Assembly (NCBI GenBank): GCA_963711675.1
Contig: CAVQFB010000002.1
Span: forward strand, 427,632-491,631
DNA length: 64,000 bases
Reading direction: 5' to 3'
From: an uncultured Acidobacteriota bacterium
GTDB lineage: Bacteria; Acidobacteriota; Terriglobia; Terriglobales; Acidobacteriaceae
Each line of letters opens with the position of its first letter. Positions within the stretch are counted from its first letter, which is position 1. A program made the position numbers and the translations under genes. Below are positions 39,973 through 59,900 of the stretch, in pieces. A model generated the notes under the pieces. The model searched no databases, was not told the DNA's origin, and was given only the letters and a program-made list of their open reading frames with translations.

Positions 39973-40049
<77 letters not shown>

Positions 40050-41529: not shown

Positions 41530-41620
41530 TTTCTACTCCATCCCGGAACTTCGGACGGGCCTATTTGGCTGAGCGTGCAGCAATCCTTGCGACGTAGGTC
41601 GTCCGACCGGGGAGCAAACG

Positions 41621-42844: not shown

Positions 42845-43022
42845 AAGGCGCGGTGCTTCGCACCGGAAGAATTTTGACACTCCACCCCTTCGAGGGAACT
42901 GTAGGGAAACTTGACATCTTTCTGGAGGAACCATCCTGGCATCCAATAGATAGCGTGGGTGGGGGTTCCGTAAGGAAACCCGTGACTCCTTGCGTAAACG
43001 CGGGTGCTGGGAGGTTGGAGCG

Positions 43023-43403
43023 ATGGCGCTGCTCGATGAGAAGAACCTTGCGGCGGAAGCGGCAAAGCGGGCGCGGTTCCGGGTGCATCACGTGGGGACA
43101 AAGCTGAACGAGGCGGAACTGCACGAGCTGGAGGGGCTGGCGGCGAAGCGGAACGAGACGCAGGCGGAGCTGATCCGCGGGCTGATCCTGCGCGAGATCG
43201 AACAGGACAAGACGGGGCTTCGACCCAGTGCGGAGATGGTGGAAATCACGGCGTGCCGGCTGTTGTTGGTGAACCTGCTGGGTCCGCTGGCGAAGGGCGA
43301 GGCAATGACGCAAGAGGGGTTCGACGGGATCGTGGACGAGGTCAAGAAGCAGAAGGCGCGTGTGGCGCGGGACCGCCTCAAAGACCACGAAGCGCGGCGC
43401 TGA
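43023..43403 (+). CDS. Ribbon-helix-helix protein, MobC/relaxosome-accessory-like
   Basis: GGGAGG RBS. The pattern KLNEAELHELEGLAAKRNETQAELIRGLILREI is typical of MobC/CopG-type RHH proteins. Confidence 0.55.
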   Translation: MALLDEKNLAAEAAKRARFRVHHVGTKLNEAELHELEGLAAKRNETQAELIRGLILREIEQDKTGLRPSAEMVEITACRLLLVNLLGPLAKGEAMTQEGFDGIVDEVKKQKARVARDRLKDHEARR

Positions 43404-43655
43404 GCAGCGGTGGCCGATGAGAAGCTGTCCGTCACCCGCAAAGGCTGACCTATGTCTCCGTCTCGCGTGGACGCTATGACGCGCAGATTTATACGAATAA
43501 TGCAGCGACGCTGGGGCAGGAACCCAGCCCCGATGTGTCCCATTCGCACGCGATTCAGCAAGAGCCAGCGATGCATAAAATAGAACTACAAACCACGCAC
43601 ACGAATCAGATCAGTCAGGGTTTCGGTTTAGGTCTGTGATGCAGCATTCCCGAAT

Positions 43656-43793
43656 GACATGCCCCGGATAGCCAGAGCATAGCCGAGGCCCGGCCAGTGT
43701 CAAGGCCGCGCTTCGCGCGCCGCGTTCGCGGTCGAAGAGCCTTGACACTGGCCTTTGCGCCTCGGCTTATTATTCAGCTATCCGGGGGATGTC
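43656..43793. repeat. 138-nt composite imperfect palindrome (three nested arm pairs)
   Basis: Arm pairs are 43656-72/43777-93 (17 bp, 1 mismatch), 43681-89/43759-67 (9 bp) and 43692-706/43739-53 (15 bp). The central 32 nt is CG-rich with mini-hairpins. Confidence 0.9.
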
Positions 43794-43896
43794 AGATTGT
43801 TACTTCCACGACCGGGCTCCGCGCCGAGTCGAACCGCTGTCGGAAGAGATCTGGGACTTGAGAAAGACGTGTTCAAACAAGCTTTCTCTTACGAGC

Positions 43897-44673
43897 ATGA
43901 GAATCATTACTTATAGCGACCTGCATCTTGAATTTGGCTCGGGCTGGATGTTGCCCCCGGCAGTGAACGGAGATGTCATGATCCTGGCAGGCGATATCGT
44001 CACGCTCAGGGATTATGAGCCGCTCGACCAGATTCTGCGGAAGTGGAAGAAACCAGTCCTCTATGTGACGGGAAACCACGAATATTACACGCGGCGGCCA
44101 ATGAACGAAGAAGACAACAGATTCAAGGCGTGGCTCGAAGACAGACATTCGCAGGTGAAACTGCTGCTTGATGAAGAGGTCAGCATCGGGGGTGTCAACT
44201 TCTTCGGCGGCACGATGTGGACGGATTTCAACGGCGCCGATTTGCGCGCCATGGAGACCGCCCGCTCTCAAATGAACGATTACCGCCTCATCTATAACCC
44301 CGACGAAACGCCTTTCACGCCAGCAGATTCGATTGCGCTACATAAAAACTTCGCGTCGAAATTGCTGAATTGGTTTGGCAAGAATCTAAGTGGTCCGCGC
44401 GTGGTTATCAGCCATAATGCACCCGTCATCAATCCCAACTCCAAATACAAGGGCGGCCCTCTCACGCCGGCGTTCAATTCCCTGGACATGGTGGAGATCA
44501 TTGAGACCCACCAGCCGGCCCTCTGGGTGTATGGCCACACGCATGAATGCGACGATCAGACGATCGGCCGGACCCGGATCATTTCAAATCAACTCGGATA
44601 TCCCAGCAACCTTGGCGGTTTTGAATGCAAGGATTTTGATGAAGCGGGTCTGCCAGTCGAGGTAGGCGTTTAG
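43897..44673 (+). CDS. Calcineurin-like metallophosphoesterase
   Basis: Motifs DLHLEF, AGDIV, GNHEYY, SHNAP, GHTHE in canonical order. Start at ATG 43897 (MRIITYSDLHLE). Confidence 0.85.
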   Translation: MRIITYSDLHLEFGSGWMLPPAVNGDVMILAGDIVTLRDYEPLDQILRKWKKPVLYVTGNHEYYTRRPMNEEDNRFKAWLEDRHSQVKLLLDEEVSIGGVNFFGGTMWTDFNGADLRAMETARSQMNDYRLIYNPDETPFTPADSIALHKNFASKLLNWFGKNLSGPRVVISHNAPVINPNSKYKGGPLTPAFNSLDMVEIIETHQPALWVYGHTHECDDQTIGRTRIISNQLGYPSNLGGFECKDFDEAGLPVEVGV

Positions 44674-44744
44674 CCCCGAGCGGGAAGAAGGTACCTTATG
44701 AGGGCAAGCGACATGCCGTGCATTCTGCCGAAGGTTGCCGAACG

Positions 44745-46229
44745 TCAAAGCCGGCCCAATACGATCCGTAGTTCGTCTGCAATCGGCGTAGAAATCGCAT
44801 CAACCGCTGCGGCCATAGGTACCGCCGTGAGCCATAACTGCACGGATCGCGAGCCAGCGGACAGCGACGCTCGATGGATGAGTCGCCCACGCTTCTTCAG
44901 AGAGTGCCAGCTTTCAGGTGAACAGGGATAGGTTAGACACGCGATTACTTTCGGAGTGGACGCCAGATTCGCGTAAGCCAGCACCTGTAGCATGTCGGTT
45001 CGATGCTGCTCCCGGAGTTGTTCTTCAAGCCGGGACCACGATTGCGCCTGCATCTCTTCCCAGTGACGCTTGTACTTTGCGTCAACAATCAACGTGAGGG
45101 AGTCCCACTCAAGCCATACATCGGGAATCAAGGACTTCTGTGAGCCGAGGTAGGGTGGTTCCCAGTTCACGGCATGTGTCGTCTCGTGTTTTCGCCCCAC
45201 CTTCATTCTGCCGCCTGTCCGGCGCGCAATCGTGCAAAACACCGTCTCCACCCACGCTTCGAAGAACTGGTCCATGCGCATCGTCCACGGAATTCCTGCG
45301 AGGTCGCTAAGTCCCGCCAGGCCCCGCTCCTCAACTGTCCACTCAATCGCTTGTAATCCGTCAGTGAACTGCTCGCTCCGCATCGGACGATGGAGCCAAG
45401 TTGCAAGCGTCGAGGAGCTAGGAAAGTAGGGGGTGACACCGTGCACTCTACGCATTAGCTCGTCCGCAAACTCAATTAGCCTATGAACAAATGCGCCTTG
45501 GTCCCTCTGTGTTTCAAGCGCTCGAAGTTGCCTCTCGACTGCGATCCGGATCGCGCCTTTCAGCAGACGATCATCGCGTAAATCGGGGAACACACACGGC
45601 ACGGAAAGAAAATTCGCCGAGGGTAAGCTCTTGGTGGCGTAGCGCGGCCAATTAACAGTTCCGCGTGGTGCACCGCGAGATTCATGGATCATCTCAAAGC
45701 GACGGTCGAGCGAGTCGAGTAGCGCCTTGAGGCGAGTGAGAACCATGAATGACAGCACCCAAACTGGGACTCTTCGCTCTGAACGGTGGAGCAGCGGCAG
45801 GCGAAGAGGCACGGGCGCTATGCGCCATCCCATCTCGGCTAACATCGGTCCGATTCCCGGCCACGGAAATCTGGGTTGGATAACCAGGCCGAAATCAAGG
45901 CGGGCTGTGGTTGCTGAGAACAGGGGAATTGCTCCTACAGACCGGCCGGATGAAACCACGAGCCAGAGGTCGCGACCGTCGTAATCCCCTTCCATTCGTG
46001 CATCGAGACGCATCATCAGAGCTCGGTTTCGCGTAATGAATTGTTCGGCGATCCGCGCTGCCTGCGCTGCGGGGTCGCGACTAGACCGCGTCTGGAAAAA
46101 GTCTATGGCTGAATATCGCGCCTCGGAATAATCTGGCAATTCGAGACAAACCTGTGCGAGATGGTCGGGCGCTTTAAGCGAGAGGCGGCTTCGAGGGGAC
46201 GACGAGCGCCTTAGAGACTGTCTAGCCAC
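44745..46229 (-). CDS. McrC-like PD-(D/E)xK nuclease subunit of a McrBC-type (type IV) restriction system
   Basis: C-terminal LIPDVWLEW...LIVDAKYK nuclease motif. It overlaps the 3' end of the McrB-like gene by 19 nt. Confidence 0.75.
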   Translation of the reverse strand: MARQSLRRSSSPRSRLSLKAPDHLAQVCLELPDYSEARYSAIDFFQTRSSRDPAAQAARIAEQFITRNRALMMRLDARMEGDYDGRDLWLVVSSGRSVGAIPLFSATTARLDFGLVIQPRFPWPGIGPMLAEMGWRIAPVPLRLPLLHRSERRVPVWVLSFMVLTRLKALLDSLDRRFEMIHESRGAPRGTVNWPRYATKSLPSANFLSVPCVFPDLRDDRLLKGAIRIAVERQLRALETQRDQGAFVHRLIEFADELMRRVHGVTPYFPSSSTLATWLHRPMRSEQFTDGLQAIEWTVEERGLAGLSDLAGIPWTMRMDQFFEAWVETVFCTIARRTGGRMKVGRKHETTHAVNWEPPYLGSQKSLIPDVWLEWDSLTLIVDAKYKRHWEEMQAQSWSRLEEQLREQHRTDMLQVLAYANLASTPKVIACLTYPCSPESWHSLKKRGRLIHRASLSAGSRSVQLWLTAVPMAAAVDAISTPIADELRIVLGRL

Positions 46230-47684
46230 TGGAGGTAGCTCCTAATGGGTTCGGCGAAGCCACCAACATAACCCTGAAACAAGTACTCCTGCAGTAGAGG
46301 CGCGAGGCTTGTTTTCAGCTCGCGCCTTGCTTTGTCTTCACTCATCTCGAGAAAATACGAGTGTCCCGGCACGAGCGCAAACGCATCGTCAGGCGCGTGT
46401 TCCACAAATATAGAGACGAGCTTCCGGAACGCGTCTTGCATCAGGGAGCATCCGTGCTGCTGAACAACACTCATCCGCGGCCACGCGGAAACGAATGCGA
46501 ATCGTCGCCTGACGGCAACGTCAACAATTGCGATGCTACGATCCGCGCTGTTCATCGTTCCGAGTATGTGTAGGTTCTTAGGTAGGTTGAGCGACCGATG
46601 GAACGGAGAGCCAAAGTCATAGGGCAAGCTGGATCACGCGCTCGCGGTCAGTTTCGGTCTCTAAGAGAAAGATCGCTTCGCCCAGGATCTTGCTTAAGTC
46701 GGCTCGGTTGATTTCGTCGATGTGCAGCAGATACGGTCGAGACAAGTCGGCTGACGCCAGGGCTGCTGCTTCCATCAGCACGCCGGGCGTCGCTTTGAAA
46801 CGCAGACCAACTCCACCATCGGAATTGTCAGGAGCAAGGCCTCCAATGAAGTTTTCGTACGTCGTGTTGGCGTGGAATTGGATGCTCCTCCCCAGGCCCT
46901 TGTACTCGTCGTCGAGAAGGTCGAGGGCCATTTTCGTTTTACCTGTACCAGGAGGGCCCTGGAGAATTATGTAGCGTCTGGAGTCCAACAGACCCTTTAA
47001 CTCATTGCGCTCAACTCCCGGCATAAGACAGTCGAGCCAGCCCGACCTGATTTCTTCGGCGCTCGGCTGCCACCGGGCCAGCGGCTCGTATCCCCTCTCT
47101 TCGAAAAGAAGATCCAGGAGAGCGCTCACCGCAGCCTCTGTCGTCGCTTTGTCGGTCGTCGGTCGAAATAGCGCGTAGACCTCTTTGCCATAGCGATCAA
47201 GGGCGGCCTTGTGGCTGGACCACTCTTTCTTGATTTCATCTGGAACCGAAATGTCGGTCCGGGTAGGGTCCTGTTTCGCCCAAGCAACGCGACTTCCTTT
47301 GCCATAACGGTGGTTTAGCCAACCGCAAATAGCTTTTGTCTTTCGTGCGTGGCCGGGCCGACCCAGAATCGCTTCGTCTGGCGTTAGACCTTGCGTCCCA
47401 ACCACTAGGCCGAGCAAACAAGGTGCCCCCTCTGCAGGGAAAATTACGAATGATAGCCCGCTGTAGGCGCCCGAGGGAGGGTTGGAAGGGTGGATGTACG
47501 CAGCAAACGGAACCCCAGTCTCGCCGCCCATTGCCGGCGCACGAAGCGCGATTTCGCCGCTTGCTGCTTGCGGATAACGCCCTTCCGCCGAGCCAAACAG
47601 AGACGCGAGGGCTGCCTCGTTTCGATCTTTCCAGCCTGCGTCAACCGACGAGTGGATAACTTCCACCAATTTCTCAAAAGCCAC
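46211..47684 (-). pseudogene. McrB-like AAA+ GTPase subunit, split by a 1-nt frameshift near 46620-46628
   Basis: ORF 46617..47684 has Walker A (GPPGTGKT) and Walker B (LLHIDEINRA). ORF 46211..46627 continues with LPYDFGSPF..NLHILGTMNSADRS..RRRF. Together they form one McrB AAA+ module in two frames. Confidence 0.8.
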
Positions 47685-47813
47685 TTGCGTTGAACCTCCT
47701 CTATTCGCTCCGCACCAATCTACTCCTGCAGGGCTCTTCTGTGGAGTTATTCCGGGTTGTTCGTGCCCACCTCAATTCGGCAACCGACATGCTTCACGTT
47801 GGTCAGCGTCCAA

Positions 47814-48410
47814 TCACAGCGCTTCGATATAGGGTCGAATGACATTGCTTACCCGGCAGACTTTGGCGTAGCGGTAGATTTCGTCGATGTTGGCTCGTTT
47901 CTGGCGAAGACAATCCTTTAGGGCTTCGATTGCGACATCGAGTCCGATTTTGTTCCGAAATTTGAAACAGTCGGCGACAGTCTTTGCGGCCGAATAGACA
48001 CAGACTGTGACGCCCTCCACCTGATGTTTGTCGATTCCCTCCGCGAGTGATGGCCCGGACAGCCGAACGATCCTGAGTGAGGGCGAAGCGAGAGCAGGGG
48101 TTCTTGCCCCTTTGGGGAGAGCGATCCAAACCGAAGCCGGACTCTGCGTCGTGATCTCGTGAAAGACGAGTGCCGAAAGCAGGCAGAGAGTAGCTTGCGG
48201 GACTCGCTTGGCGACTTCGGCGTAGGAGTGGTGTTCCGTCACGTCGGCATCTGGAAGTGTGTAGATTCCACGTGCAGGCCGATTGAGCTTGCCTTGCCGG
48301 TGGAGACGAACGAGATACTGCCGCGGAAAACCGATCACCTCGATATCACGGGACCTAACAATCCCGTGTTCGCCGATGTACTGCATAATCTTTTGAAGAG
48401 AATTGTCCAT
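47814..48410 (-). CDS. AbiEi-family (type IV TA antitoxin-like) winged-helix protein, no AbiEii partner
   Basis: N-terminus IMQYIGEHGIVRSRDIEVIGFPRQYLVRLHRQGKLNRPARGIYTL (AbiEi_4-like), with a C-terminal AbiEi-like domain. The next gene downstream is McrB-like, not a nucleotidyltransferase. Confidence 0.75.
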   Translation of the reverse strand: MDNSLQKIMQYIGEHGIVRSRDIEVIGFPRQYLVRLHRQGKLNRPARGIYTLPDADVTEHHSYAEVAKRVPQATLCLLSALVFHEITTQSPASVWIALPKGARTPALASPSLRIVRLSGPSLAEGIDKHQVEGVTVCVYSAAKTVADCFKFRNKIGLDVAIEALKDCLRQKRANIDEIYRYAKVCRVSNVIRPYIEAL

Positions 48411-48420
48411 AGCGGCTGTC

Positions 48421-48460
48421 CCAATACGTCATTACGTAATAATATCTGATGACGTATTGG
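48421..48460. promoter_or_regulatory. Perfect 12-bp inverted repeat, candidate AbiEi operator
   Basis: CCAATACGTCAT (48421-32) and ATGACGTATTGG (48449-60) with a 16-nt AT-rich spacer. It begins 11 nt upstream of the AbiEi start codon, in the divergent intergenic region. Confidence 0.5.
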
Positions 48461-48728
48461 CACACTCAATAGTATCCGCGCCGACGCAGGTTGCTGGCAG
48501 AAAAACGAAAAACATTAAGGTAATGTCGTGCCATACTAGCTGTCATATCCTCGTGAAGAATTTGCGTTCGCGTCAAGAAAGTCTACGCATATTCGCCTTT
48601 CATTCGCTATGATTGGTAGTGGCGCACTGACATGACTCGCTAAGCTTGATCGGGACAATGACTTCGGTCATCCCTAGCACGCTTCAGAGCAGGATGAGGA
48701 CTGATCTCAGATTGTTATAATTGCTGGC

Positions 48729-50693
48729 GTGACCGCAAAGAAGCCCAGCGCGAGCGTAGTTCCGGACTCGGCAAGCCCGACTCTGAATTCAGAAAGGCTT
48801 GTGCCAGTGAGTGCGCCATCGGGTGATCCTGATTTTATGCAAGAGTTGTTCCTGCCGATTCACGGTCACATTGAATTGCATCGCGAGGAACTCGCGGTGA
48901 TCGACCACCCATCCTTCCAACGACTCAGACGTGTGAGACAACTCGGACTTGCTCATATGGTGTTTCCAGGCGCAACCCACACACGGTTTGAGCATTGCGT
49001 TGGGGCTGTTCACGTGGCAAAGACGATCGTCGATCACGTGAACAAGAACTTCAAGAATGCCAAAAACGACTCCATCCAATGGAAGATGTGTGGCATTGAC
49101 AATCCTGCCGCAAGATTCATTCGATTGGGGGCTCTCCTTCACGATGTGGGCCACCTTCCATTCGGCCATACTCTCGAGGATGAACTAAACCACCTTCGCT
49201 CGCATGACGGCCCCGAACGACTAAATCGCGTCTCTACAATCCCCTATCCGAATCACGATGTCGACAGAACACTAGTGGATCTCAGCTTGAAACCGGACGG
49301 CGGGTGGACCCTTAAGGCCTTGATTAACGAGCTATATAAGAGCACTGCGAAGGAGTTGGGTCTAGGCAAGCACGATGCTTTCACCATTCTTTCTCACATC
49401 GTTTGTAAACCGCCAAAGAAGGAGTCCGAGAAGGCGGTCTGGATCAGTACCACCGCGAGTATTGCAGAGAATTTCCCCCTGCGCGTTTGCCAAGACATAG
49501 TGGGCAATACGATCTGCGCCGACTTTCTCGACTACCTTCACAGGGACTGGTATCACCTAGGCAAACCCTTATATTTCGACGAGCGACTTTATCAGTACAT
49601 GGAAGTCAGGCAGCGGCTGAGTCCAGTCGATGGTGATGCCGCGCCAAGATTCGTCATCAATGTGCGTGCTACGGAGAAGATCCGTCACGATGCCCTCACC
49701 GATATTCTCGAACTTTTGAACGCGCGGTACAAGCTTGCCGAAACTGTGTTGTTCCACCGAACAAAATTAGCCCTCACTGGATTGCTGGATCGCTCTTTGC
49801 TGGAAATCGGCGATCTCTATGAGAAAGTGGGCTTAAGATTCGAGAAACTCGCTGAATCGGCTGAGTCACTACTGCTGGAGGCGTCAGACGACGGCTTGCC
49901 TCTACTTCTCAAAGAACTTGCGAATGGGACCGAGAAGTCGGATCGAACAATAATCCAAGCGGCAATAGCGGAAGAGACTCGGGAAATCCAAATGGAGGTC
50001 GCTCCGCAGGCTTCGTTCGAGGAAGGAACCCCGAGCGGGAAACTTGGTTCCCAAAAGGATTTGGCCCTGCGTCTGATTGAGAGACTTCGCGACCGTGAAG
50101 TGTATACGCTTGCGTGCAAACTAAGGATGGCTGATTTTCCGGGCGCGCACTTGCCGGGAAATCCTCGGCTCCAGAAGGTCCTCGATATTTACAGAGTTCC
50201 AAAGAACAGATTAGCGTATCTGCGAATGATGGAAGCACGGTGCGGGCTTCCTTGGGGTTCTCTGGTCATGAATTGCCCACCGGACGCGACGATGAATGCG
50301 AAGGTCGCGAAAGTAAACCTCTTTATTGAGGATGAAGTCAGCCCGTTCGACAAGTATGAAGAACAAGGCGAGGCTAACCTGACGCGGGGAGCCCTTACCG
50401 CGCAAATTAAGCGGTTTTACGAGTTGTGGGCGGCGATCATCTATATTGACCGTAGAGTTTGGGATGCCCTATCAGAGGGTGAGCGCAAGAATCTGAGGTC
50501 TGTTTTGAAGACGTTCTTTTTCCTAGAGCCAGGTGCGGACCCCAGTGTCGTCCGGGCTCAAATGGAGCCCTCGCTCGACATTCTGAGGAAGCGAAGAGCG
50601 TCTCGGAGCGGGACGACAAGTGTGGACGAAGAACAATACCGTGGTTTGTTTTTCCCCAGTGGACTTTCGTTTGATAATCCCACTATTAAGTGA
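48729..50693 (+). CDS. SAMHD1/dGTPase-like HD-domain phosphohydrolase with a long uncharacterised C-terminal region (start 48729 GTG or 48837 ATG)
   Basis: FQRLRRVRQLGLAHMVFPGATHTRFEHCVGA, LLHDVGHLPFGH and DFLDYLHRDWYHLG together form the H..HD..D metal-ligand set of dNTP triphosphohydrolase-type HD proteins. Confidence 0.85.
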   Translation: MTAKKPSASVVPDSASPTLNSERLVPVSAPSGDPDFMQELFLPIHGHIELHREELAVIDHPSFQRLRRVRQLGLAHMVFPGATHTRFEHCVGAVHVAKTIVDHVNKNFKNAKNDSIQWKMCGIDNPAARFIRLGALLHDVGHLPFGHTLEDELNHLRSHDGPERLNRVSTIPYPNHDVDRTLVDLSLKPDGGWTLKALINELYKSTAKELGLGKHDAFTILSHIVCKPPKKESEKAVWISTTASIAENFPLRVCQDIVGNTICADFLDYLHRDWYHLGKPLYFDERLYQYMEVRQRLSPVDGDAAPRFVINVRATEKIRHDALTDILELLNARYKLAETVLFHRTKLALTGLLDRSLLEIGDLYEKVGLRFEKLAESAESLLLEASDDGLPLLLKELANGTEKSDRTIIQAAIAEETREIQMEVAPQASFEEGTPSGKLGSQKDLALRLIERLRDREVYTLACKLRMADFPGAHLPGNPRLQKVLDIYRVPKNRLAYLRMMEARCGLPWGSLVMNCPPDATMNAKVAKVNLFIEDEVSPFDKYEEQGEANLTRGALTAQIKRFYELWAAIIYIDRRVWDALSEGERKNLRSVLKTFFFLEPGADPSVVRAQMEPSLDILRKRRASRSGTTSVDEEQYRGLFFPSGLSFDNPTIK

Positions 50694-51587
50694 GTGCTTC
50701 CCTTGTCCCAACAGCGTGATCTGAAGAGCGAACTGTCGTCTGTCGCGACTTCACTTCGTCCGCTCGGGAAGCCGTTTGTGTCCGTCTTGGAACTTGCCAA
50801 TGATCTTGGAACGGCGGTGTCTCTCCGACTGCAGAACGCTCGAAGCAATAACACTGCCCAGATCGATCTCTGGACTAACCCCGCGAAAATCGTTGTTCAT
50901 CGGTTCAGCAAGCTAGAAGGTGAGAGGGAGTTGAAGGGCCAGGACGAGGGCCTGCTGAATTCTCGCGAAAGATTTTCGGTAGCTCACGAACTCGGACATT
51001 GGGTTCTTTTCAATCGCTTTCAGATTGGGCCGGAATCTGAGAGGCGTCCTTATTGGGAACAGGAAGAAGTGATAAACGCCTTTGCAGGTCAGCTGCTTGT
51101 GCCAGACTGGCTTGCAAAAAACTGGCTGGAGAGTACACCGAAACACCTACCCATCCCTCCCTTCGCGTTACGATCGTGGGCCGAGGATTGCCGCGTGTCA
51201 GAAGAGGTCGCTGCAAAAGCACTGGTGCGGCAGAGAAGTTTCATCGGTTTTCTCAGATTGGTCACGACTCGGAGAAAGCGTGATCAGACACGTGTACTTC
51301 AAGTTCTTTCATGTGCCAAGGGAGATGCATTGGAGCTGCCAAGCCAGCGTTCTCACATAGAGAATGCAAAGCTTTTCGAGATGTTAACGAATAGCACCGT
51401 TGGGTCCGGCTGGATTGAGCAGGTCAGTTTGGCGCGATGTGCACCTCAGGACCTTGGAATTGCTTGGCGTTACGCGAACAAGTGGCGTTCTGAAAATACG
51501 ATTTGGCTTTCACTCATTCGTGGAAGGAACACCGAGCTCGACCTCTATGGTGGTTCTCTCTTCAGCCACGCGAACGCGAAAATCTAG
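50694..51587 (+). CDS. ImmA/IrrE-family (DUF955, M78-like) zinc metallopeptidase domain protein
   Basis: GTG 50694 directly follows the TGA of the HD gene. HEXXH (VAHELGHW) plus the downstream EEVINAFAGQLLVP motif. Confidence 0.8.
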   Translation: MLPLSQQRDLKSELSSVATSLRPLGKPFVSVLELANDLGTAVSLRLQNARSNNTAQIDLWTNPAKIVVHRFSKLEGERELKGQDEGLLNSRERFSVAHELGHWVLFNRFQIGPESERRPYWEQEEVINAFAGQLLVPDWLAKNWLESTPKHLPIPPFALRSWAEDCRVSEEVAAKALVRQRSFIGFLRLVTTRRKRDQTRVLQVLSCAKGDALELPSQRSHIENAKLFEMLTNSTVGSGWIEQVSLARCAPQDLGIAWRYANKWRSENTIWLSLIRGRNTELDLYGGSLFSHANAKI

Positions 51588-51668
51588 CCATCGTCATCCT
51601 GCTTCGATTGAGGATTGAGGCGAGTTTCCTCGCGTGAGTGCCAAGCGGGTCACTGCCCGAGTAAAATG

Positions 51669-52004
51669 TGGTGCGGGCGGAGGGACTCAAACCCTCATGG
51701 GCCGTTTAAGCCCTGCGGATTTTCGTACCGTCTACGGCTTTCGCCGCCCGGGCTTGGACCTCTTTTGGAGGGCTCACGCCAGGTTTGCGGTCTGGACTAT
51801 CCCTTCACCGTCCTCCGGAAAAGTCCGAAGCTTAGGTGCTGCCCGTCTTGTCTCTACACCTTCCCGGCTGGTGTTTCTCCGGGCTCGGCTCGGGGTTGCC
51901 ATTTAAGGGCTCCCCGAATTTGAGCAGTTCTGCATCGCTGGTTTCCCAGACGAGCACTCAAGTTTTCCTTAGGTCCACTGCGTATGCCATTCCGCCACGC
52001 CCGT
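51669..52004 (-). tRNA. tRNA-Leu(UAA)-like gene interrupted by a group I intron (exons 52004..51971 and 51723..51669)
   Basis: The joined exons fold as a class II tRNA: acceptor, GCGGAATGGCATACGC D-arm, GUGGA/UCCGC anticodon stem, loop CCU|AAAA, 18-nt variable arm, GAGGG/CCCUC T-stem and encoded ACCA. The 3' exon closely resembles my recollection of the cyanobacterial tRNA-Leu(UAA) 3' exon. Confidence 0.8.
51724..51970 (-). ncRNA. Group I (IC3-like) self-splicing intron, 247 nt, no ORF
   Basis: Inserted after U34 of the anticodon. P1 can form with a U.G pair at the 5' splice site (CCU|AAG with CUUGAG), and the intron ends in G. Core blocks GGGAAACC, UCAAAUUCGG, AUGGCAACCCCGAGCCGAGCC, GGAAGGUGUAGAGACAAGACGG and CACCUAAGC match the tRNA-Leu/Azoarcus-type introns as I remember them. 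Confidence 0.8.
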
Positions 52005-52112
52005 GCGCGGCTCTCTGACTGCATTTCTATCATAGGGCAGATTCGCCGCGATTTATACTCCACGTGATTTACAGATTTTCGCGAAATCGCTCGCATAGAA
52101 CGAGGGACGAAG

Positions 52113-53363
52113 ATGGCGGAACAACACACGATCCTTGGCGGAAAAGTTTACGTCTACAAGCGGCCGAACAGCAGCCGCTGGCAATGCTCAAGCTTCTTCG
52201 CGGGCAAGAATCGTCGCACCAGCACGAAGGAAGAGAGCCTCGCCAAAGCCAAGGACGTCGCCGAGGACTGGTATCTACAGCTTCGGGGAAAACTTCTCAC
52301 TGGAGAGCTCAAAGCCGAAAAGACCTTTCGCGAGGTGTCTGAACAATTTTTACGCGAATGCGAGATCATGACGCGTGGAGAACGTAGCAAGCAATACGTG
52401 AAGGGCCAGTATTTGCGGTCGAGCGTTCACTTGGTGCCCTTCTTCGGAAACATGGACATCTCGAAGATCACCACGGGAAAAATCGTGGATTATCGAGTTC
52501 ACAGACACCAACAAGCAATTGCGAAACGCGGCAAGCCGCCGGCACACAGCACCATGCACCACGAAATCGTGACGCTGCGCCAGACCTTGAAGACCGCGCT
52601 GTGCCACGGATGGCTCGACCGGCTTCCAGATTTCTCTGAGCCGTACCGGCGATCATCGAAAGTCTCCTACCGGGCATGGTTTTCGCCAGAAGAATACGAG
52701 AAACTCTGTGAAGCGACTCGAAAACGCGCACTTGAGCCGAAGAAAAAGGGCTTCAAATGGCAAGCGGAGCAACTGCATGACTATGTCCTCTTCGCGGGCA
52801 ATACCGGGCTGCGGCCTGATGAGGCACGGCGCCTTGAGTTCCGTGATGTCGAGATCGTTGACGACGAGCCTTCGGGCGAGACGATTCTCGAGATTGAAGT
52901 GCGCGGAAAACGCGGATTCGGATATTGCAAGAGTATGCCCGATGCAGTGAGTCCATTTGAGCGACTTAGAAGCAGGCTCCGTCCGAGGCGCGTTGACGGC
53001 GTGCGTGCCCCCACCGAAGTGTCCGACAATTCTGATGTCCGGGGGAAGGAATGGCGCACGCCCGAACCGACCGACCTCATTTTTCCCAAATGGCAGAGCG
53101 AGCTCTTCAAGACCATCACTGAGGAGGAGAATCTTCGGTTCGACAGAGACGGCCGACCACGTACGGCGTACAGCCTACGGCACACGTATATCAGCATGCG
53201 GTTGATGGAGGGAGCCAACATCTATCAAATCGCTAAGAACTGTCGCACGAGTGTCGGAATGATCGAGAAATATTACGGGGTGCATGTCAAGAACTCGCTC
53301 AACGCCGCTGCCATCAATGTGGTCCGCTCGGGTAAAGACGAGATGGCGGAAGAAGAGGTATGA
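52113..53363 (+). CDS. Tyrosine-type site-specific integrase (second)
   Basis: C-terminal catalytic region (GLRPDEARRLEFRDV ... AYSLRHTYISMRL ... IAKNCRTSVGMIEKYYG); GAGGGA RBS. Confidence 0.9.
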   Translation: MAEQHTILGGKVYVYKRPNSSRWQCSSFFAGKNRRTSTKEESLAKAKDVAEDWYLQLRGKLLTGELKAEKTFREVSEQFLRECEIMTRGERSKQYVKGQYLRSSVHLVPFFGNMDISKITTGKIVDYRVHRHQQAIAKRGKPPAHSTMHHEIVTLRQTLKTALCHGWLDRLPDFSEPYRRSSKVSYRAWFSPEEYEKLCEATRKRALEPKKKGFKWQAEQLHDYVLFAGNTGLRPDEARRLEFRDVEIVDDEPSGETILEIEVRGKRGFGYCKSMPDAVSPFERLRSRLRPRRVDGVRAPTEVSDNSDVRGKEWRTPEPTDLIFPKWQSELFKTITEEENLRFDRDGRPRTAYSLRHTYISMRLMEGANIYQIAKNCRTSVGMIEKYYGVHVKNSLNAAAINVVRSGKDEMAEEEV

Positions 53364-53438
53364 GCGCAACAACAGCATTGCCCGTCTTTCTTCCGAAATC
53401 GTGCTTGCTTGCTCCCCCGATAGCGGTATCAACACCCA

Positions 53439-53490
53439 GTATATTAGGTTATTTTGATGCATTACGCGTAAAAGCCTCGTATATTAGGTT
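53439..53490. promoter_or_regulatory. Two 12-bp direct repeats (GTATATTAGGTT) upstream of the XRE gene, candidate operator
   Basis: Copies at 53439-50 and 53479-90. The second ends 1 nt before ATG 53492. Confidence 0.4.
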
Positions 53491-53491
53491 T

Positions 53492-53770
53492 ATGTTGCCC
53501 CTGTTCTCACTAGGCGAGCAGATCGCCATCAAGCGCAAAGAACTCGGCCTGACGAAGCCCACGCTTGCAAAAAAAGCCAGGGTCGGACTCTCCACGCTCG
53601 ACGCCCTGGAAAACGGACGGATGGGCGAACTGGGATATTCCAAGATCACCAATATTCTCGCGGCGCTGGGGCTGGAGCTGAAGCTTCAGCAAGCAAGCGC
53701 GAGCCGGCCGACGCTTGAAGAACTCATGGAAGAGGCACGGGATGATGATGGTCTGGACCGACGCCGCTGA
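53492..53770 (+). CDS. XRE-family helix-turn-helix transcriptional regulator (HipB-like)
   Basis: LGEQIAIKRKELGLTKPTLAKKARVGLSTLDALENG is an HTH_XRE pattern. Start chosen at ATG 53492. Confidence 0.75.
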   Translation: MLPLFSLGEQIAIKRKELGLTKPTLAKKARVGLSTLDALENGRMGELGYSKITNILAALGLELKLQQASASRPTLEELMEEARDDDGLDRRR

Positions 53771-53915
53771 GGCGGGAATACTCGAACGCATAGAGGCTGC
53801 GATTGCGGACACCTCAAAGGAACTGCACGCCTACATTAAAGCGCACGCGGAATTCATTGAGATAGGCAATCGCATGCTCCAGCAATGGGAGCAAGGTGTC
53901 GCGCTTTCGCTTTAG
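53742..53915 (+). CDS. Possible small ORF overlapping the XRE gene end
   Basis: ORF only (MMMVWTDAAEAGILERIE...). Confidence 0.25.
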   Translation: MMMVWTDAAEAGILERIEAAIADTSKELHAYIKAHAEFIEIGNRMLQQWEQGVALSL

Positions 53916-54328
53916 GTGCATTCCAAAAGGTTGCTTTCCTCGTTCCTCCGGGTGTACCGATTATTGTCGAGAGTTGGTACGAGATACAACGAACGGCTAT
54001 GACATTTTGGGAATGTCCAAGGACCCAGACCTTGCCTCCCAGCATTGGACCCGCGCTTCGAAACGTTGATTGGCAAGGCGCGCGAAGGTTCTGCTGCGAA
54101 GTAGAGATAATCAACGTTGGAAATGGTGAGTCGCTCGTCAGTTTCCCTTTGTGCTCACATCCACCACCGAACTCAGCGAGGAATCCTGATCTAGCGACCA
54201 AAGGGGTTAGCAAGCATGTAGTGACCTGACCCCATTGTTCGTTCAAATCGTATTCCAAATTGGGACGAATTTAGGGGGCAGGTCCGGTTGGAAAGGGCCG
54301 ACCAGGCTGAGGTCGGCCTATCCATTTT

Positions 54329-54775
54329 TCACCGACTCTTGAACCAAGTAACAATCAAATCGGGACGTTGCGCTAGAGCCTGCTGGACGGGCCCATTGTG
54401 TATCTGGGAGCAGAGTGCTGTATTCACCGCTGCGTTCACGAAGCCCATACGAAAAGCCGCTTGAGCGGCGTTCATCATGTTCGTGCGATCCCAGACATTT
54501 CCTAGAACCTGGTACTCGAATGGGACGTTCGGGAGCGATATCCCAGAGATCCCTTGCAGGGCGTTGACTCCGCACAGGCCGCCCTCATTGAAGCCGTGGT
54601 CCCCAGCGGACCAATCGAGATTGGCTTTCACAAAGCCGTAGTCCTGCGCGTTTGCTTGGCTGATCGTCAATGCCGCGCCCAGCAAGAGGGCAGCGAGAAC
54701 CATTGCTTTCTTGAGTAAGACCCCGCTAACGAACCGTTGTAAGGAAACTGATCGAAATCCTTTGCAGTTGTTCAT
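54329..54775 (-). CDS. Small secreted hypothetical protein
   Basis: ATG 54775 is preceded by GGAGGA. Signal peptide ...KKAMVLAALLLGAALTISQANAQD. Confidence 0.55.
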   Translation of the reverse strand: MNNCKGFRSVSLQRFVSGVLLKKAMVLAALLLGAALTISQANAQDYGFVKANLDWSAGDHGFNEGGLCGVNALQGISGISLPNVPFEYQVLGNVWDRTNMMNAAQAAFRMGFVNAAVNTALCSQIHNGPVQQALAQRPDLIVTWFKSR

Positions 54776-54912
54776 TTCATCCTCCGATAGTTGATTAGCT
54801 GGTTTGTTCTCAAGAGGCGACGACCAAGTTCGCACGTCCTCAGGGGCTCGGTTGATCGCGAGCCGTGAATTTGAGATTGTGGACGTCCGGCTTTCGGCCA
54901 AATAATTATTCT

Positions 54913-56020
54913 TCACTTTGCTTGCGTCTTTGCGGCCGGCGCGTTCAGAGTTTTAGGAGCCTCCGTCGAGGCGGGGGATAACTCCCAATTGACGGAGAAT
55001 TGACCCGTGCGCAAATCGGTTTCGACTGGTTTTCCCTTACACTTTTCATTGCGCCTGACGAACACAAACTTCTGAAGTGATCCGTGCGACGCAACTTGTT
55101 CAGTGGATCCGAAGCTCTGCGAGGTCAGGTTTTGAAGCTGTTCCGCTGACATGTCAACGAGCAACTCCTTGGACGCCGTTGTGAAACCTCCTCCCAAGAT
55201 GGCAACGGCTTGAGTGAAGCCGGAGCGAAAAGAAAGGTTGGATTGCGCTCCCGAGTGTGGCGAGAGCCTGGACCGTATTGAAATAGATCGCCCTTCGACC
55301 CGTTAGCTTGCGGTCAGCAGAGAAAATGCTAGTGACGTGATCGAGGGAAAAAGCAACAAGGGATCCCTCTTCCGTACAGGCGTCGTCCGGGGGCTGCGCG
55401 GCTTGGTGGTCGGTTACGACGCTTATGCCGCCCAATGGAACGACGATTGCCATGGGACACTCGTTGACGATAGAAAGCTGGATCGCGTAGAAGTTTTTAG
55501 CCACCCCGTTTCCATACTTATTTCCAGCTTGGCTCTTCGGAACAATCTGTGGAGCGAGCTTCACTTGTGATTTGAATTCGCAGGCCAGCGTTCCGGTTTC
55601 GAACGTAACGAAACTAGAGCCAGCCGATAAGGCCACCTCCTGCAGTGTGTAGTTCGAAGGGGCTGTGAATTGGGCAAGTATTTTCGAGTTGTCCAGTGAG
55701 CGCGATAATGCCGGGATTGGGTTTGGAGTGACGCCCACCGCAGGGAGTACCGCTATATGGACACTGTTCATGTCCGTGATGCCGGCGAAACCAGAACCCG
55801 TGATCTCAAGGACGAAATCCTGCGTTGCGCCTTGAGACGTGTTTTGGGTCGCTGCTTGTGGGTACACGGCTACCGATGAAATCTTCGGTTCAGTCGCGGC
55901 CGGTTGTGCAGCTGCCGCCTGTGGCTCCGGAGCCGTGGCTTGCGACGCTAACGATGTCGTCAGAGTAAGAATGGAAACGAACACTAAGACGCTGATACCT
56001 GAAATTCGAAAGACCGGCAC
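54913..56020 (-). pseudogene. Secreted hypothetical protein gene split by a frameshift near 55226-55236
   Basis: ORF 55154..56020 (signal peptide, IPT-like N-terminus) and ORF 54913..55197 join as ...AIQPFF/RSGFTQAVAILGGGFTTASKELL... if one nt is added or removed in the run GCGAAAAGAAAGG. Confidence 0.6.
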
Positions 56021-56265
56021 ATATCCTCCTCACATTCTTGAAGTTGACCTTTGTACCTAGACGACCGAAGCACCAACCTGTCCGCTCTCTTGGTAGCGCA
56101 AAAGTTTCTTAAATGGCGTCCAGGCCGTTCTTGTTCCTCTGTCTGTAGGAGACGACAGATAGCCGCGAAATCCTTTTTCAAATGGTGAATGACGGTAATT
56201 CATGGCAGACAACAACGGATAGCGTTGCTTCATGTAGAATTCGGGCACCCTGGTCGTGAGGTTCT

Positions 56266-56922
56266 GTGAGACGCCATTCGTCCATGACTGTGGAGGAGTT
56301 GATACGCGCTTGCGCCGAATCCCATGACGGCGCGGCTTGGGAAGAGTTCGTCTCCCGTTTTCAGAGGCCGATCAGTCTTTCAATCAAACGCACGGCCTGC
56401 CAATGGGGAAAAGACCCAGCGCAGTTTGTCGACGATTTACTTCAAGAGACCTATCTCAAGCTCTGTGCGGATAAGTGCCGCGTGTTGCTCGAATTTGCTC
56501 GGCAACATTCTGACGAGGCAGTGCTGGGATACATAAAGACAATTGCGATCAATGTTGCGCACGATCACTTCAAGTCACTCCATTCTCAGAAGCGCGGCGC
56601 GGGAGAGACCGATCAGTTGCACGAAGACTTCGACCCAGCAGCGCAGAGCGGCAGCTTTGGGGGCCCAGAGGCCATGGACCGCGAGGTCTTTCTGAAGCAG
56701 GTCGACGAGCAGCTACAGAATTGCGCGGCTGGCTCCAATCAGGAGCGGGACTGCCTTATTTTCTGGTTTTACTATCTGCAAGGTATGAGCGCTAAAGCAA
56801 TTGCTGCTTTGGCGACCATCAAACTCACAGCAAAGGGCGTGGAGGCCGTCATTTTCCGGCTCACTCGCTGTGTACGGGAGCATTTGGGCAACTCGGGCAC
56901 GGCAGACTCGGCGGAGGCATAG
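56266..56922 (+). CDS. ECF-type RNA polymerase sigma-70 family factor
   Basis: Region 2 (FVDDLLQETYLKL) and region 4 HTH (GMSAKAIAALATIKLTAKGVEAVIFRL). Confidence 0.85.
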   Translation: MRRHSSMTVEELIRACAESHDGAAWEEFVSRFQRPISLSIKRTACQWGKDPAQFVDDLLQETYLKLCADKCRVLLEFARQHSDEAVLGYIKTIAINVAHDHFKSLHSQKRGAGETDQLHEDFDPAAQSGSFGGPEAMDREVFLKQVDEQLQNCAAGSNQERDCLIFWFYYLQGMSAKAIAALATIKLTAKGVEAVIFRLTRCVREHLGNSGTADSAEA

Positions 56923-56979
56923 AAAGCGGACCGAAAAGGATTCCTCCCGCCAATGTCGTATTAGAAGGAGTAGCAGATT

Positions 56980-59900
56980 TTGACACGGCCATTCGACAAA
57001 CATCTCGACAGCGACGAACTGGATAGGCTCGTTTCGTTGCAAGAGACGAGTGTGTCCGGTTCGGAGCAACTCTCGGAGGCAGCTCTGAGAGAGGCCCAAC
57101 GCCACGTTGAGTCTTGCCAGGACTGCAGCCGAAAGGTGCAGAGGCACAGGTTCGTGCAGAGCGAGATTTTGCGTATGCGAGTGCCTAATCCATCGCCGCC
57201 GACTCCGCGAGTGCATGGGAGATGCCGAGTGGCTGGAAGTGGCGGCCGGGCTTTTGCCGGAAGCGAAGACAAGAGAACTGATGAAACATGCGGCACAATG
57301 CGGGCACTGCGGACCTCTGCTAAAGAACGCCGCAGAAGCACTCGTGGACGAAGCAACTCCTAGCGAGGAGGCACTGCTGGCCTCACTGCAAAGTGCGCGA
57401 CCCGAATGGCGGAAGAACATGGCCGCAACACTGCGAGACAGTGTGCGAGATCGGCAACCGAAGTCTTCGTGGTGGAGGGCGGTCTTCGCTTGGCCGGCTC
57501 CAGCATACGCATTTGCGGGGATTGTCGCCGTTGCCGTAGTGGCTTGGATCGGAGTGCGGGCTTTGCATCCTCCGTCTGCCGAACAATTGCTCGCGCAGGC
57601 CTATACGAGCATCGGACTTTAGAAGTGAGAATCCCCGGTGCAAAATATGCTCCGATGCAGGCAGCAGCGAGGCGCCGGGCGAGTCGGATTTCGACAAACC
57701 ACAATCTTTGTTAAAGGCCGAGGATCTGATTGGTGAAGCCCTCAACAAGAATCCGAACGACCCAAAGTGGCTGCAAGCACGGCCCGTGCCGAACTTGCTC
57801 GACGGCAACTACGAATCCGCCATCAAGTCGTTGCAGCGAGCGCTGGAGACGCAGCCCGATTCGCCCAGACTTCTGACCGACCTAGGCTCTGCATATTTCG
57901 TGCGTGCCGAATCCGCCGAATCGGCCCATTGACTACGGCAATGCCATCATGAATCGTTTGGCAAGGCGCTGGCCAAGTCGCCGGACGATCCGATCGCGCT
58001 GTTCAATCGCGCCCTGGCCTGCGAACACATGTTTCTCTACACCCAAGCCGTGGACGACTGGGAGCACTATCTACGCGTCGATCCACAAGGCGAGTGGGCT
58101 GACGATGCCCGCCGAAGGCTAACGGCTCTGAAACAGAAACTCCAGCAGCACGAGAAAGTCAAGTCCGAACCGCTGCTGAGTCCAGCAGAGATTGTAAGAG
58201 GCATCGGACGAATACGTGCTGCGAGGCAGAAAATTGACGATCGTATCGAGGAATACCTTCGCCTTGCAATAACTGACATGGCTGCCGCAGGCCTTTCCGG
58301 GTGGGTCCGAGCAATCTTCGATTGAGTAAGAAGTTCTCGCGCTGCCCTTTGGGTTTTGGCTGAGATTTGCCGCAGCGAACATGGTGACACGTGGCTGGCA
58401 GATTTGCTTAACCACCATCGGTGGCAATTTTCTGGTGGCATTAAGGCTTTGTCAGCAGCGCTTAAAGCGGACGAAAGAGGGGACTATTCCAGGGCCAGAA
58501 CTCCGCACGACAGTGCGACTCAATTGTTTCGGGACAGATGCGAACACAGCAGGGAGATACGGGCGCAAGCCGAGGAGGTCTATTCAGACCACTTGCTCTG
58601 GGAGGGGACCGCAGTGTTCACTCGCTGCTGAAACAAATGGCATGAACCGCTTAGGCGCAGCTAGCTACAGATGGCTCCGGGCTCAGATGAGTTTGGAGCA
58701 ATCGAACTGCGCCGACCTGGTCGGTGACCTCGGAACGTACGAAGCCGCGATCGACGAGGGACTGCAAGCGAAGCAGCGCGTCACCAGTAGCTATAGCCTC
58801 TTGTTCTGCGCGGTTGGGGTTTCAGGCGCTCTCTGCATGCTTCGCTCGGAGACGCCGGCCGATTTCGCCGGTGTCCGAAAGGATTGACGCTCTTCTGGTC
58901 TGGCCAGATTGACCTGATGAAGGGATACAACCTTTATTACGACTTGGACTCGGCCGCTGACGGTTGCGGCCTCGCCAACTTCCAAGTCATTGTATGGCGA
59001 GAAGCTGCTGCGTTGATCGATCGACATCCCGACGTGCTGCTGCGAGCAATGGCTCACCGTTGGTATGGAAGTGCCGCATACGTTGCAGACAAGCCGAGGC
59101 CTAGCGGCGGCGGAGTTTTCTAAAGCCAGTGCGTTATTTGCTGCTTCCCCCACAAACTGCGGCGACCGACAGAGATCACATGGACGCAGAGGTCTGGCTG
59201 GCGCAGACTGAAATCCGCCAGGGTGACTTGGATCAGGCTGCCACGCGGCTCCAACCATCAAGCCAAAATTGACAGAACACCCAGCTTTGACCCAGAAATT
59301 GTATTCTACACGGCGCAAGCGGACATCGCAATGCGGCACTCCGATTCCGACGCTGACAGAAGCCGCGCTTCGGTCGGCTATTTTTCTAGCCGAGTGGGCT
59401 CTCAACTCTTTTCCCATCCGAAAATGATCGGCACGAGTGGGCCGAACAAACTCGGGGCGCCTATAGAAACCTAGTGGAATGGAAGCTTCGTCAGGGTGAC
59501 GCCAATTCGGCCCTTGAGCTTTGGGAGTGGTATAGGGGGGCGGAATTGAGAGCGCTGACAGCACATTCCGTCACCTGGAGGACCCCGGAAATACGCCCCC
59601 CGATCCCCGCGATGCTCCGCCGCTTCCTTCGCCTAACGTAGTAATCGCGCAACTACCTCTACTCAGCGACGAAACAGTTATCGCTTATGGCAGTTTCCCG
59701 ATGGGATTGCTGTCTGGGCCTATGATGATCGTGGCGTTTCATCCCGATGGATTCCTACTTCCTTGCCGCCCGTGCAAGATATAGTAATTCGTTTTCAGCG
59801 TCTCTGCTCAGATCCCAATTCGGACCTCGCTACACTGCGTACAGACTGGGAGTGCGTATAGGACCTGCTATTGGGCCCGTGGAGGAACGCCTTGGGCCTG

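Follow-up and report, generated by a model that had tools for sequence, protein, structure and literature searches.

The window analysed here, a stretch of 64,000 nucleotides (nt) of contig CAVQFB010000002.1 from an uncultured member of the Acidobacteriaceae, contains two abutting genes that encode an HD phosphohydrolase of the SAMHD1/EF1143 type, a putative deoxynucleoside triphosphate (dNTP) triphosphohydrolase, and a zinc metallopeptidase of the IrrE/PprI/CapP type (M78 family). This HD-M78 pair looks like an undescribed switchable module, which is probably directed against phages. SAMHD1-type enzymes hydrolyse dNTPs and restrict viruses, and nucleotide depletion is an antiviral strategy both in animals (SAMHD1) and in bacteria (dGTPase, dCTP deaminase, Clover). 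The pair is tentatively read as a defence module in which the peptidase gates dNTP depletion, a reading whose probability is judged to lie somewhat below even. A previous interpretation, made from the nucleotide sequence only and further referred to as the sequence-only reading, had delineated both open reading frames (ORFs), their characteristic motifs and their direct contact, and had assigned the products to SAMHD1-type HD enzymes and ImmA/IrrE-type peptidases. The ORF list and the sequence bear out the former, the TGA codon of the HD gene (50691-50693) being followed with zero gap by the GTG codon of the peptidase gene at 50694, and the latter agrees with intact catalytic residues and with the Pfam models HD (PF01966; 27.5 bits; residues 86-152) and Peptidase_M78 (PF06114; 26.1 bits; residues 90-177), both with a cut-off of 22 bits.

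The HD protein is related to SAMHD1 over its entire length. A profile (A1), built from an alignment of 31 full-length HD homologues and searched against the PDB with hmmsearch, matched SAMHD1 (E=4.5e-26) and EF1143 (E=1e-21), and a Dgt-type dGTPase at only 1.5e-3. In these 31 homologues, none of the metal ligands (H89, H138, D139 and D265) varies, nor does R86, H142, H147, E150, H159, Y269, R272 or D273. The catalytic motifs align residue by residue with those of SAMHD1, and the invariant set is the SAMHD1 active-site set. Of the guanine-site residues, the equivalents D59 and Q64 are present, the third one, R67, being variable across the family. The AlphaFold2 (AF2) model of the protein (mean predicted local distance difference test [pLDDT] score 85.9; predicted template modelling [pTM] score 0.85) was aligned by Foldseek with fungal and human SAMHD1 and with EF1143 over about 600 columns (E=1e-13), the best matches having a target-normalised TM-score of about 0.6-0.67. 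This extent indicates that the whole protein is one SAMHD1 fold, so that the approximately 330 amino acids (aa) in which the sequence-only reading had recognised no motif are the remainder of that fold and no unknown domain. As judged from its residues, the HD protein most likely hydrolyses dNTPs. Membership of the Dgt-type anti-phage dGTPases was considered as well and was ruled out, as the scores lie far under the NCBIfam cut-offs (NF041026, 23.7 bits versus 400; NF003701, 25.9 bits versus 383) and the match is confined to residues 51-161; the dGTPase model of PADLOC (32.5 bits) also covers the N-terminal 110 residues or so only. With this score, the protein is no housekeeping Dgt dGTPase either, the alternative that the sequence-only reading had named. 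Its family is rare and patchy.

Compared with the short SAMHD1-like relatives of about 450 aa, members of the long HD family possess about 200 extra residues, which are found in an expanded region (residues 161-258), an inserted helix with a disordered loop (residues 401-440) and a C-terminal tail (residues 621-654). The tail carries a conserved AAR...[FY]P-x-G-x-P motif, of which [FY]PxG recurs across clade A (the clade of the window, see below), and it is missing from the short relatives that lack a peptidase neighbour. Its predicted order changes along its length (pLDDT 53 at residues 621-630 and 82-93 at residues 631-650). The tail is a candidate docking or cleavage site for the peptidase.

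The peptidase is an IrrE-like protein with a sensor-like domain. It carries EEVINAFAGQLLVP alongside the HELGH motif, and H98, E99, H102 and E124 are invariant in 31 peptidase homologues. Its AF2 model (mean pLDDT 91.3) had structures of IrrE/PprI as its top four Foldseek matches (8sln, 8slm, 3dti and 3dte; 282-284 columns; TM-score 0.68-0.71 normalised to the target), and it shows the full three-part architecture of IrrE/PprI, namely a peptidase domain, a helical region and a GAF-like domain. The C-terminal part alone resembles GAF/PAS/LOV sensor domains according to Foldseek. By sequence, CapP (E=0.0036) and IrrE come closest among the solved structures, around HEXXH...E only, a motif that aligns with CapP 7t5t and IrrE 8slm, and the best PADLOC model is that of capP (41.9 bits). 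Twelve PADLOC models of RmrA (at most 30.4 bits; residues 89-147 only) and the NCBIfam spr1629 repressor/antitoxin model (22.8 bits versus 335) match the protein too. Neither Pfam nor the AF2 fold revealed an XRE helix-turn-helix domain in the peptidase. No cysteine is invariant among the 31 homologues, making a cysteine switch of the CapP type unlikely. The subfamily comprises 44 clusters at E<=1e-30 and 201 clusters at E<=1e-10 among 1.84 billion representatives, and many of its members were found on contigs with HD homologues.

The two genes are linked far beyond the window. A scan with the A1 profile of one genome per species (GTDB) yielded 205 relatives, of which 80 loci were fetched. A tblastn search with the peptidase of the window found a peptidase directly behind the HD gene in 41 loci, and in 58 of the 80 loci an iterated hidden Markov model (HMM) detected an M78 ORF no more than about 1 kb away from the HD ORF, in most cases in direct contact with it, with only three other M78 matches in all remaining flanking DNA of these loci. 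The HD-M78 pairing thus far exceeds chance, and nearly all long HD genes with readable flanks have an M78 neighbour. The adjacency, on whose conservation the sequence-only reading had made its proposal depend, is therefore maintained across many phyla. The loci were grouped into clades. In clade A, to which the window belongs (including L001-L033 and L036; motif RDW[YH]H[LIV]GK plus the tail motif), the M78 gene is located directly downstream on the same strand, often with an overlap of 4 nt, and loci lacking a called M78 ORF are contig ends or broken ORFs, L018 and L024 still displaying a truncated tblastn match. Loss of the peptidase in L081 and L084 was considered and rejected, as the gene is intact in both and was missed by gene calling. 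In its sister clade B (motif RDH..TG[LI]; mainly Actinomycetota and Acidobacteriota), the M78 gene is convergent, occurs upstream in a short form, or is spaced from the HD gene. A few additional long HD forms have a downstream M78 gene as well. Clade C consists of 12 short SAMHD1-like genes (426-463 aa), none of them with an M78 neighbour.

The hosts include Acidobacteriota, Alpha- and Gammaproteobacteria, Actinomycetota, Chloroflexota, Armatimonadota, Verrucomicrobiota, Omnitrophota, Calditrichota and two archaea. Clade A occurs rarely and patchily, dispersed over more than 10 phyla; one copy is present in a cultured strain, Hoeflea marina DSM 16791 (L026). Searches of plasmid, phage and IMG/VR collections returned no clade-A member, only distant HD proteins (24-32% identity over the N-terminal half), and neither of the two that were inspected had an M78 neighbour, so that the module is not known on cultured plasmids or phages. 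The HD and M78 distance matrices of 24 clade-A pairs are correlated (r=0.83; as high in 0 of 2000 permutations), and a comparison of the window with L081 shows purifying selection on both genes (ratio of nonsynonymous to synonymous substitutions, dN/dS, of 0.06 for the HD gene and 0.13 for the peptidase gene). The divergence between the window (48729-51587) and L081 (9893-12751) is mosaic, with an identity of about 0.5-0.85 within the HD gene that rises to about 0.9 precisely where the two genes meet (50694). Taken together, the two genes are regarded as one mobile functional module, clade A representing a horizontally moving chromosomal accessory module.

No further gene is conserved with this unit. 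When 1712 flanking ORFs of 49 loci were clustered all against all, no third conserved gene emerged, only synteny at the level of clades (gyrB, gyrA), and an iterated XRE HMM applied to ORFs of at least 50 aa found no conserved XRE repressor beside the pair in clade A or clade B. Exceptions are L043 and L003, where an XRE gene adjoins the M78 gene, in L003 as a component of a toxin-antitoxin pair, and L078, in which an XRE-like ORF overlaps an overlong M78 ORF. The XRE gene of L043 (11669-12088, minus strand) encodes 139 aa with a DdrO/CapH-like layout and separates the HD gene from the M78 gene, from which it is divergent; this order may be ancestral or intermediate.

The 5' end of the operon contains a putative promoter and possible regulatory sites. 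The TATAAT box occupies positions 48716-48721, one nucleotide further than the sequence-only reading had it (48715-48720), and is part of the extended -10 element TGTTATAAT. A scan for consensus promoters did not list this element because it has no -35 match. Further upstream, the block AATGACTTCGGTCAT is identical across the window, L081 and L082, while the intergenic DNA around it has diverged; the block may function as an operator or regulatory site for both genes. Similarly, only two positions distinguish the window from L081/L082 in a block of 46 nt (48711-48756) that spans the extended -10 element, the GTG codon and the first nine codons, the next 26 codons diverging with frame and length kept. 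Both conserved blocks suggest that the 5' end of the operon overlaps with a regulatory element. The second one would fit either a leaderless GUG start or a 5' leader with ATG 48837 (M37) as the true start, from which a protein of 618 aa would be produced. What speaks for the latter is that the conserved HD core starts there, as do the homologue P0004 and, in the AF2 model, the ordered region; residues 1-31 are predicted to be disordered. A look-up of the exact sequence of the HD protein read from the GTG codon returned no record.

Table. Features of the HD-M78 operon and of the surrounding island, in positions of the window.
Feature	Position	Strand	Description
HD gene	48729-50693	+	GTG start; 654 aa; SAMHD1/EF1143-type HD phosphohydrolase, putative dNTP triphosphohydrolase
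M78 peptidase gene	50694-51587	+	GTG start; 297 aa; IrrE/PprI/CapP-type zinc metallopeptidase
HD catalytic motifs	48978-49562	+	HTRFEH at 48978-48995 (residues 84-89)
HD motif LLHDVGHLPFGH	49134-49169	+	Residues 136-147
HD motif DFLDYLHRDWYHLG	49521-49562	+	Residues 265-278
HD C-terminal tail	50589-50690	+	Residues 621-654; family-specific
Peptidase zinc/catalytic motif	50985-51065	+	HELGH at 50985-50999 (residues 98-102); third ligand E124 at 51063-51065
Peptidase GAF/PAS-like C-terminal domain	51240-51524	+	Residues ~183-277; peptidase domain at residues ~1-180
Extended -10 element TGTTATAAT	48713-48721	+	Read from sequence; ends 7 nt before GTG 48729
Conserved upstream block AATGACTTCGGTCAT	48657-48671	+	5-bp inverted arms ATGAC/GTCAT
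tRNA-Met	39973-40049	+	ARAGORN, Rfam; left island border
Tyrosine integrase	40094-41347	-	Adjoins tRNA-Met; left border
PDC-S10-like metallophosphatase	43789-44673
McrC-like and AAA_5 McrB-like genes	44745-47684	-	494 aa and 355 aa, respectively
AbiEi gene	47814-48410	-	Full length; 273 bits on PADLOC model
tRNA-Leu(UAA)	51669-52004	-	Split by a 247-nt group I intron; right border
Second integrase	52113-53363		Follows tRNA-Leu gene
CHAT protease-domain ORF	59747-60415	+	222 aa; 81 bits

About half of the inspected loci are situated in defence, toxin-antitoxin or mobile islands. For example, L083 contains PDC-S06 (514 bits), PIN, SLFN_AlbA_2, an AriA/Old-like ATPase and, separately, an M78+HTH pair; in L085, a type I restriction-modification system lies immediately upstream of the pair, and an IetA-like AAA ATPase is found on the downstream side; L086 carries BrnT and RelE/HTH toxin-antitoxin genes; and L088 has two copies of MazEF besides ParDE, a reverse transcriptase, an IetA-like AAA ATPase and several insertion sequences. 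In addition, fragments of a transposase and an integrase occur near the pair in L081. Other loci have contexts of a different kind, such as type II secretion genes in L089. In two unrelated loci, L085 (12968-15649, plus strand) and L088 (13565-15340, minus strand), the large AAA ATPase gene comes right after the peptidase gene, its ATPase domain being matched by the IetA models of PADLOC; this could be a coincidence or an occasional third component. Among the Acidobacteriota, the context differs at every locus. A Pfam census, which covered the 139 nearest flanking ORFs, returned 133 different families and is noisy because high-GC genomes yield spurious ORFs. Clade A is often, though not always, found in defence islands. 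Of the two-gene defence module that the sequence-only reading had proposed, the conserved two-gene unit thus stands, and the defence role is not established, the contexts being mixed.

In the window, the module is located within an 11.6-kb segment flanked by two convergent tRNA genes. Both tRNA genes named by the sequence-only reading exist, but standard tools found only tRNA-Met. The tRNA-Leu gene, missed by ARAGORN and by Rfam at its gathering threshold, had to be worked out manually, as it is split in the anticodon loop by an intron (51970-51724; Rfam Intron_gpI, 26.4 bits, E=1.6e-4) into a 5' exon (52004-51971) and a 3' exon (51723-51669). The sequence spliced in silico was recognised as tRNA-Leu(taa) by ARAGORN; it has a C instead of a U at position 33. 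Introns of this type are classically known from cyanobacteria and plastids, and the best matches of the HD-M78 pair point to an acidobacterial host here. The tRNA-Leu gene is convergent with the operon, the tRNA 3' end lying 81 nt past the stop codon of the peptidase gene. A repeat of the 3' end of tRNA-Met was sought as an att site that would delimit the island, and none was found. The integrase, McrC-like, AAA_5 and AbiEi genes are present as the sequence-only reading had described. No AbiEii nucleotidyltransferase gene comes after that of AbiEi, and the position of AbiEi upstream of the AAA_5 and McrC-like genes forms an unusual combination of regulator and effector. A Pfam search of 11 neighbouring ORFs of the window (40094-57420, the ORF of 138 aa at 46211-46627 excluded) found no nucleotidyltransferase domain. 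The CHAT ORF sits among many ORFs without Pfam match (54-64 kb), which implies that a variable, possibly defence-related region reaches the end of the window.

In bacteria, dNTPases provide defence against phages, and they require regulation (PMC12265719). Single-stranded DNA stimulates IrrE and CapP, which then cleave a partner protein (PMC13228613), and in all characterised relatives it is a stress cue that switches such a peptidase on. Effectors licensed by proteases are common in defence (10.1101/2025.11.14.688446). In the mechanism proposed, phage replication or DNA damage would give rise to single-stranded DNA, a cue that the peptidase would sense through its GAF-like domain and interdomain groove. 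The peptidase, having become active, would cut the latent HD enzyme at its C-terminal tail or at the exposed loop 425-437 and so license it, whereupon dNTP pools would collapse and phage DNA synthesis would halt. A dNTP substrate, the HD protein as the target of the peptidase, activation instead of inactivation, and a role in defence are what we infer here. The peptidase is thought to act on the HD protein itself because the usual XRE repressor partner is absent, and activation and defence are favoured because clade A shares the distribution of defence genes and is frequently in their neighbourhood. The most specific version, in which an IrrE-like peptidase that lost its repressor substrate would respond to single-stranded DNA by turning a SAMHD1-like zymogen into an active dNTP depleter through direct cleavage, is possible and rather doubtful. 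Clade B, located beside gyrB, gyrA and dnaA, may then be a housekeeping ancestor that tunes dNTP pools to replication stress.

Several observations weigh against peptidase-gated defence. The lysine of SAMHD1 that contacts phosphate (in D-x-D-K-W-D-Y) aligns with F266, a position that is F, L or I across the family, so that the substrate may be a different one. When the window is compared with L081, the proportion of synonymous differences (pS) reaches 0.72 in the HD gene and 0.28 in the peptidase gene, a 2.6-fold gap which implies that one gene was swapped by recombination, HD alleles being exchangeable against a constant peptidase; this argues against a very tight co-adaptation of both proteins. 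As to the contexts, LeuA is a neighbour in L026 and metabolic genes are in L004 and L005, and the top families of the census include DnaA, DnaN and GyrB, with no dominant defence family. In an Acidobacteriaceae metagenome-assembled genome (MAG; L087), a class II ribonucleotide reductase gene (6535-9828) lies on the same strand 173 nt upstream of the HD gene, and in a Sulfotelmatobacter MAG (L001) an Ada/AlkA alkylation-repair gene (6617-8119) adjoins the pair, neighbours that point to a theme of DNA and dNTP metabolism. Finally, gyrB, gyrA or dnaA is found within 10 kb in 10 loci, of which nine belong to clade B (L035, L039, L041, L042, L043, L044, L047, L055 and L073, from Actinomycetota and Acidobacteriota) and one to clade A (L008), and the clade-B pair recurs in many Solirubrobacterales genomes, where it looks vertically inherited. 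A tRNA-Ile(GAT) gene occurs near several of the origin-proximal loci of Actinomycetota, and clade B may represent a resident, replication-linked form near the replication origin. The ribonucleotide reductase and Ada/AlkA neighbours, the 10 replication-gene loci and the recurrence in Solirubrobacterales speak for the main rival, a switch in DNA damage or replication stress with no dedicated antiviral role, whereby the HD enzyme would keep dNTPs low constitutively and the peptidase, triggered by single-stranded DNA, would destroy or inactivate it to let dNTPs rise for repair. So does the structure of the peptidase, which is most closely related to IrrE/PprI, DNA-damage sensors of Deinococcus, one of which was solved with single-stranded DNA bound (PMC13228613). 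This switch is nevertheless considered unlikely, as clade A is rare, is spread over more than 10 phyla with a different locus in each related genome, often occurs near tRNA genes, integrases, toxin-antitoxin genes and restriction-modification genes, a pattern of accessory genes and not of a core homeostasis regulator, and has only one locus close to a replication origin.

The remaining rivals differ in the part they assign to either protein. The tight translational coupling of the two genes, the richness of L086 and L088 in toxin-antitoxin genes, and the matches of the peptidase to 12 RmrA models and to spr1629 would suit an addiction module of the Rosmer or COG2856 kind, in which an HD toxin would be neutralised continuously by degradation or binding to the peptidase and would stabilise the island. 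However, these matches extend over only about 50 residues around HEXXH, far under the cut-offs, the N-terminal XRE helix-turn-helix is lacking, and a GAF-like sensor domain suggests an action that depends on a signal and is not constitutive, all of which leaves a toxin-antitoxin role improbable. The peptidase could also leave the HD protein alone and control transcription of the operon only, either by cleaving an unlinked repressor or by binding DNA via its central helical region, as in CapP/CapH and IrrE/DdrO. Every characterised member of its family cleaves an XRE repressor (PMC13228613, PMC6868357), L043 has an XRE gene between the two genes, and the palindrome upstream of the promoter is conserved in the window, L081 and L082, but the lack of a conserved XRE gene beside the pair in clades A and B, and the hindrance that dependence on an unlinked repressor would pose to the spread of two genes across phyla, make such an arrangement hardly probable. 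A similarly slim chance is given to the HD protein not being a dNTPase, the SAMHD1 scaffold being used for another substrate (NTPs, a signalling nucleotide or nucleic acid) with an output other than dNTP depletion. In line with this, the family reads C-A-D-[FLI]-L-D-Y at the SAMHD1 lysine mentioned above, the large insertions 161-258 and 401-440 distinguish it from the characterised enzymes, and further downstream two residues that contact the substrate, in the A-Y-Q-H-K motif of SAMHD1, seem to be represented by L-F-H-R. On the other hand, the metal ligands, the His/Glu pair and the active-site Arg, Tyr and Asp are all invariant, and the closest solved structures are all dNTP triphosphohydrolases.

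How toxic nucleotide-depleting enzymes are silenced until they are needed is still a largely open question. If peptidase-gated dNTP depletion is correct, proteolysis by a sensor of the DNA-damage type would join the known controls of dNTPases, the ImmA/IrrE/CapP family would extend beyond repressor cleavage, with its first non-repressor substrate, and the pair would be the first metallopeptidase-gated immune system based on nucleotide depletion. It would link two lines of research, namely the sensing of single-stranded DNA by CapP/IrrE and protease-licensed effectors. If instead the pair is a repair switch, it would provide a bacterial parallel to the regulated removal of SAMHD1, tying DNA-damage sensing to dNTP supply. 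The compactness of the two-gene unit and the clade-A copy in the cultured Hoeflea marina DSM 16791 make the question directly testable.

The 2026 survey of dGTPase architectures did not reveal the pair (PMC13519002), and PADLOC 2.0 holds no model for it, with only a weak N-terminal match to dGTPase and matches to capP and RmrA around HEXXH. Matches in PHROGs were limited to generic regulators and families of unknown function, and full-text searches of the literature found no paper that pairs an HD/SAMHD1-type protein with an ImmA/IrrE/M78 peptidase, in agreement with the sequence-only reading, which knew of no named system with this pairing. Regarding the HD protein, the likeness to SAMHD1 and EF1143 comprises the fold over the whole length, the H...HD...D metal site, the His/Glu pair, and the motifs FQRL..QLG, RFEH and D-x-x-D-Y-x-x-R-D. 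The family of the window differs from them by its two insertions, its conserved tail and the replaced lysine, and its long genes are paired with M78, whereas the short bacterial relatives are unpaired. The anti-phage dGTPase of Tal et al. 2022, a single-gene system that is said to restrict phages by depleting a dNTP, is an HD-superfamily enzyme as well, but it is of the Dgt type, not of the SAMHD1 type, and has no partner. Clover (PMC12265719) is also a two-gene defence operon, in which the dNTPase CloA is held in check and released by a dedicated partner. That partner, CloB, is a nucleotidyltransferase making the inhibitory p3diT, whereas here it is an M78 metallopeptidase with a GAF-like sensor, so that any control would be proteolytic and irreversible, unlike in Clover.

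Regarding the peptidase, CapP/CapH, IrrE(PprI)/DdrO and ImmA/ImmR have the same peptidase family and three-part architecture, CapP/CapH adjoins immune operons, and such peptidases are activated by single-stranded DNA or DNA damage (PMC13228613). In contrast to these systems, the conserved partner is an enzyme and not a DNA-binding protein, no XRE substrate is encoded with the pair, and the peptidase family of the window lacks an invariant cysteine from which a cysteine switch like that of CapP could be formed. RosmerTA (RmrT/RmrA) and COG2856-Xre likewise place an M78 (COG2856) peptidase in a two-gene accessory module (PMC3632139), but their peptidases are fused to or paired with an XRE helix-turn-helix, which that of the window does not possess. 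Evans et al. 2025 (10.1101/2025.11.14.688446) described protease genes linked to genes of latent effectors, with a proposed activation by site-specific cleavage, in one case at the C-terminal tail. Their proteases, however, resemble trypsin, caspase or subtilisin and are fused to sensors of the STAND type and of other types, their ten effector families include none of the HD/SAMHD1 type, and M78 peptidases are unmentioned. From these comparisons, the HD-M78 module may be viewed as a hybrid that unites the regulated dNTPase of Clover, the sensing of single-stranded DNA by a peptidase as in CapP/IrrE, and the licensing of effectors by proteases; it is a member of none of these systems.

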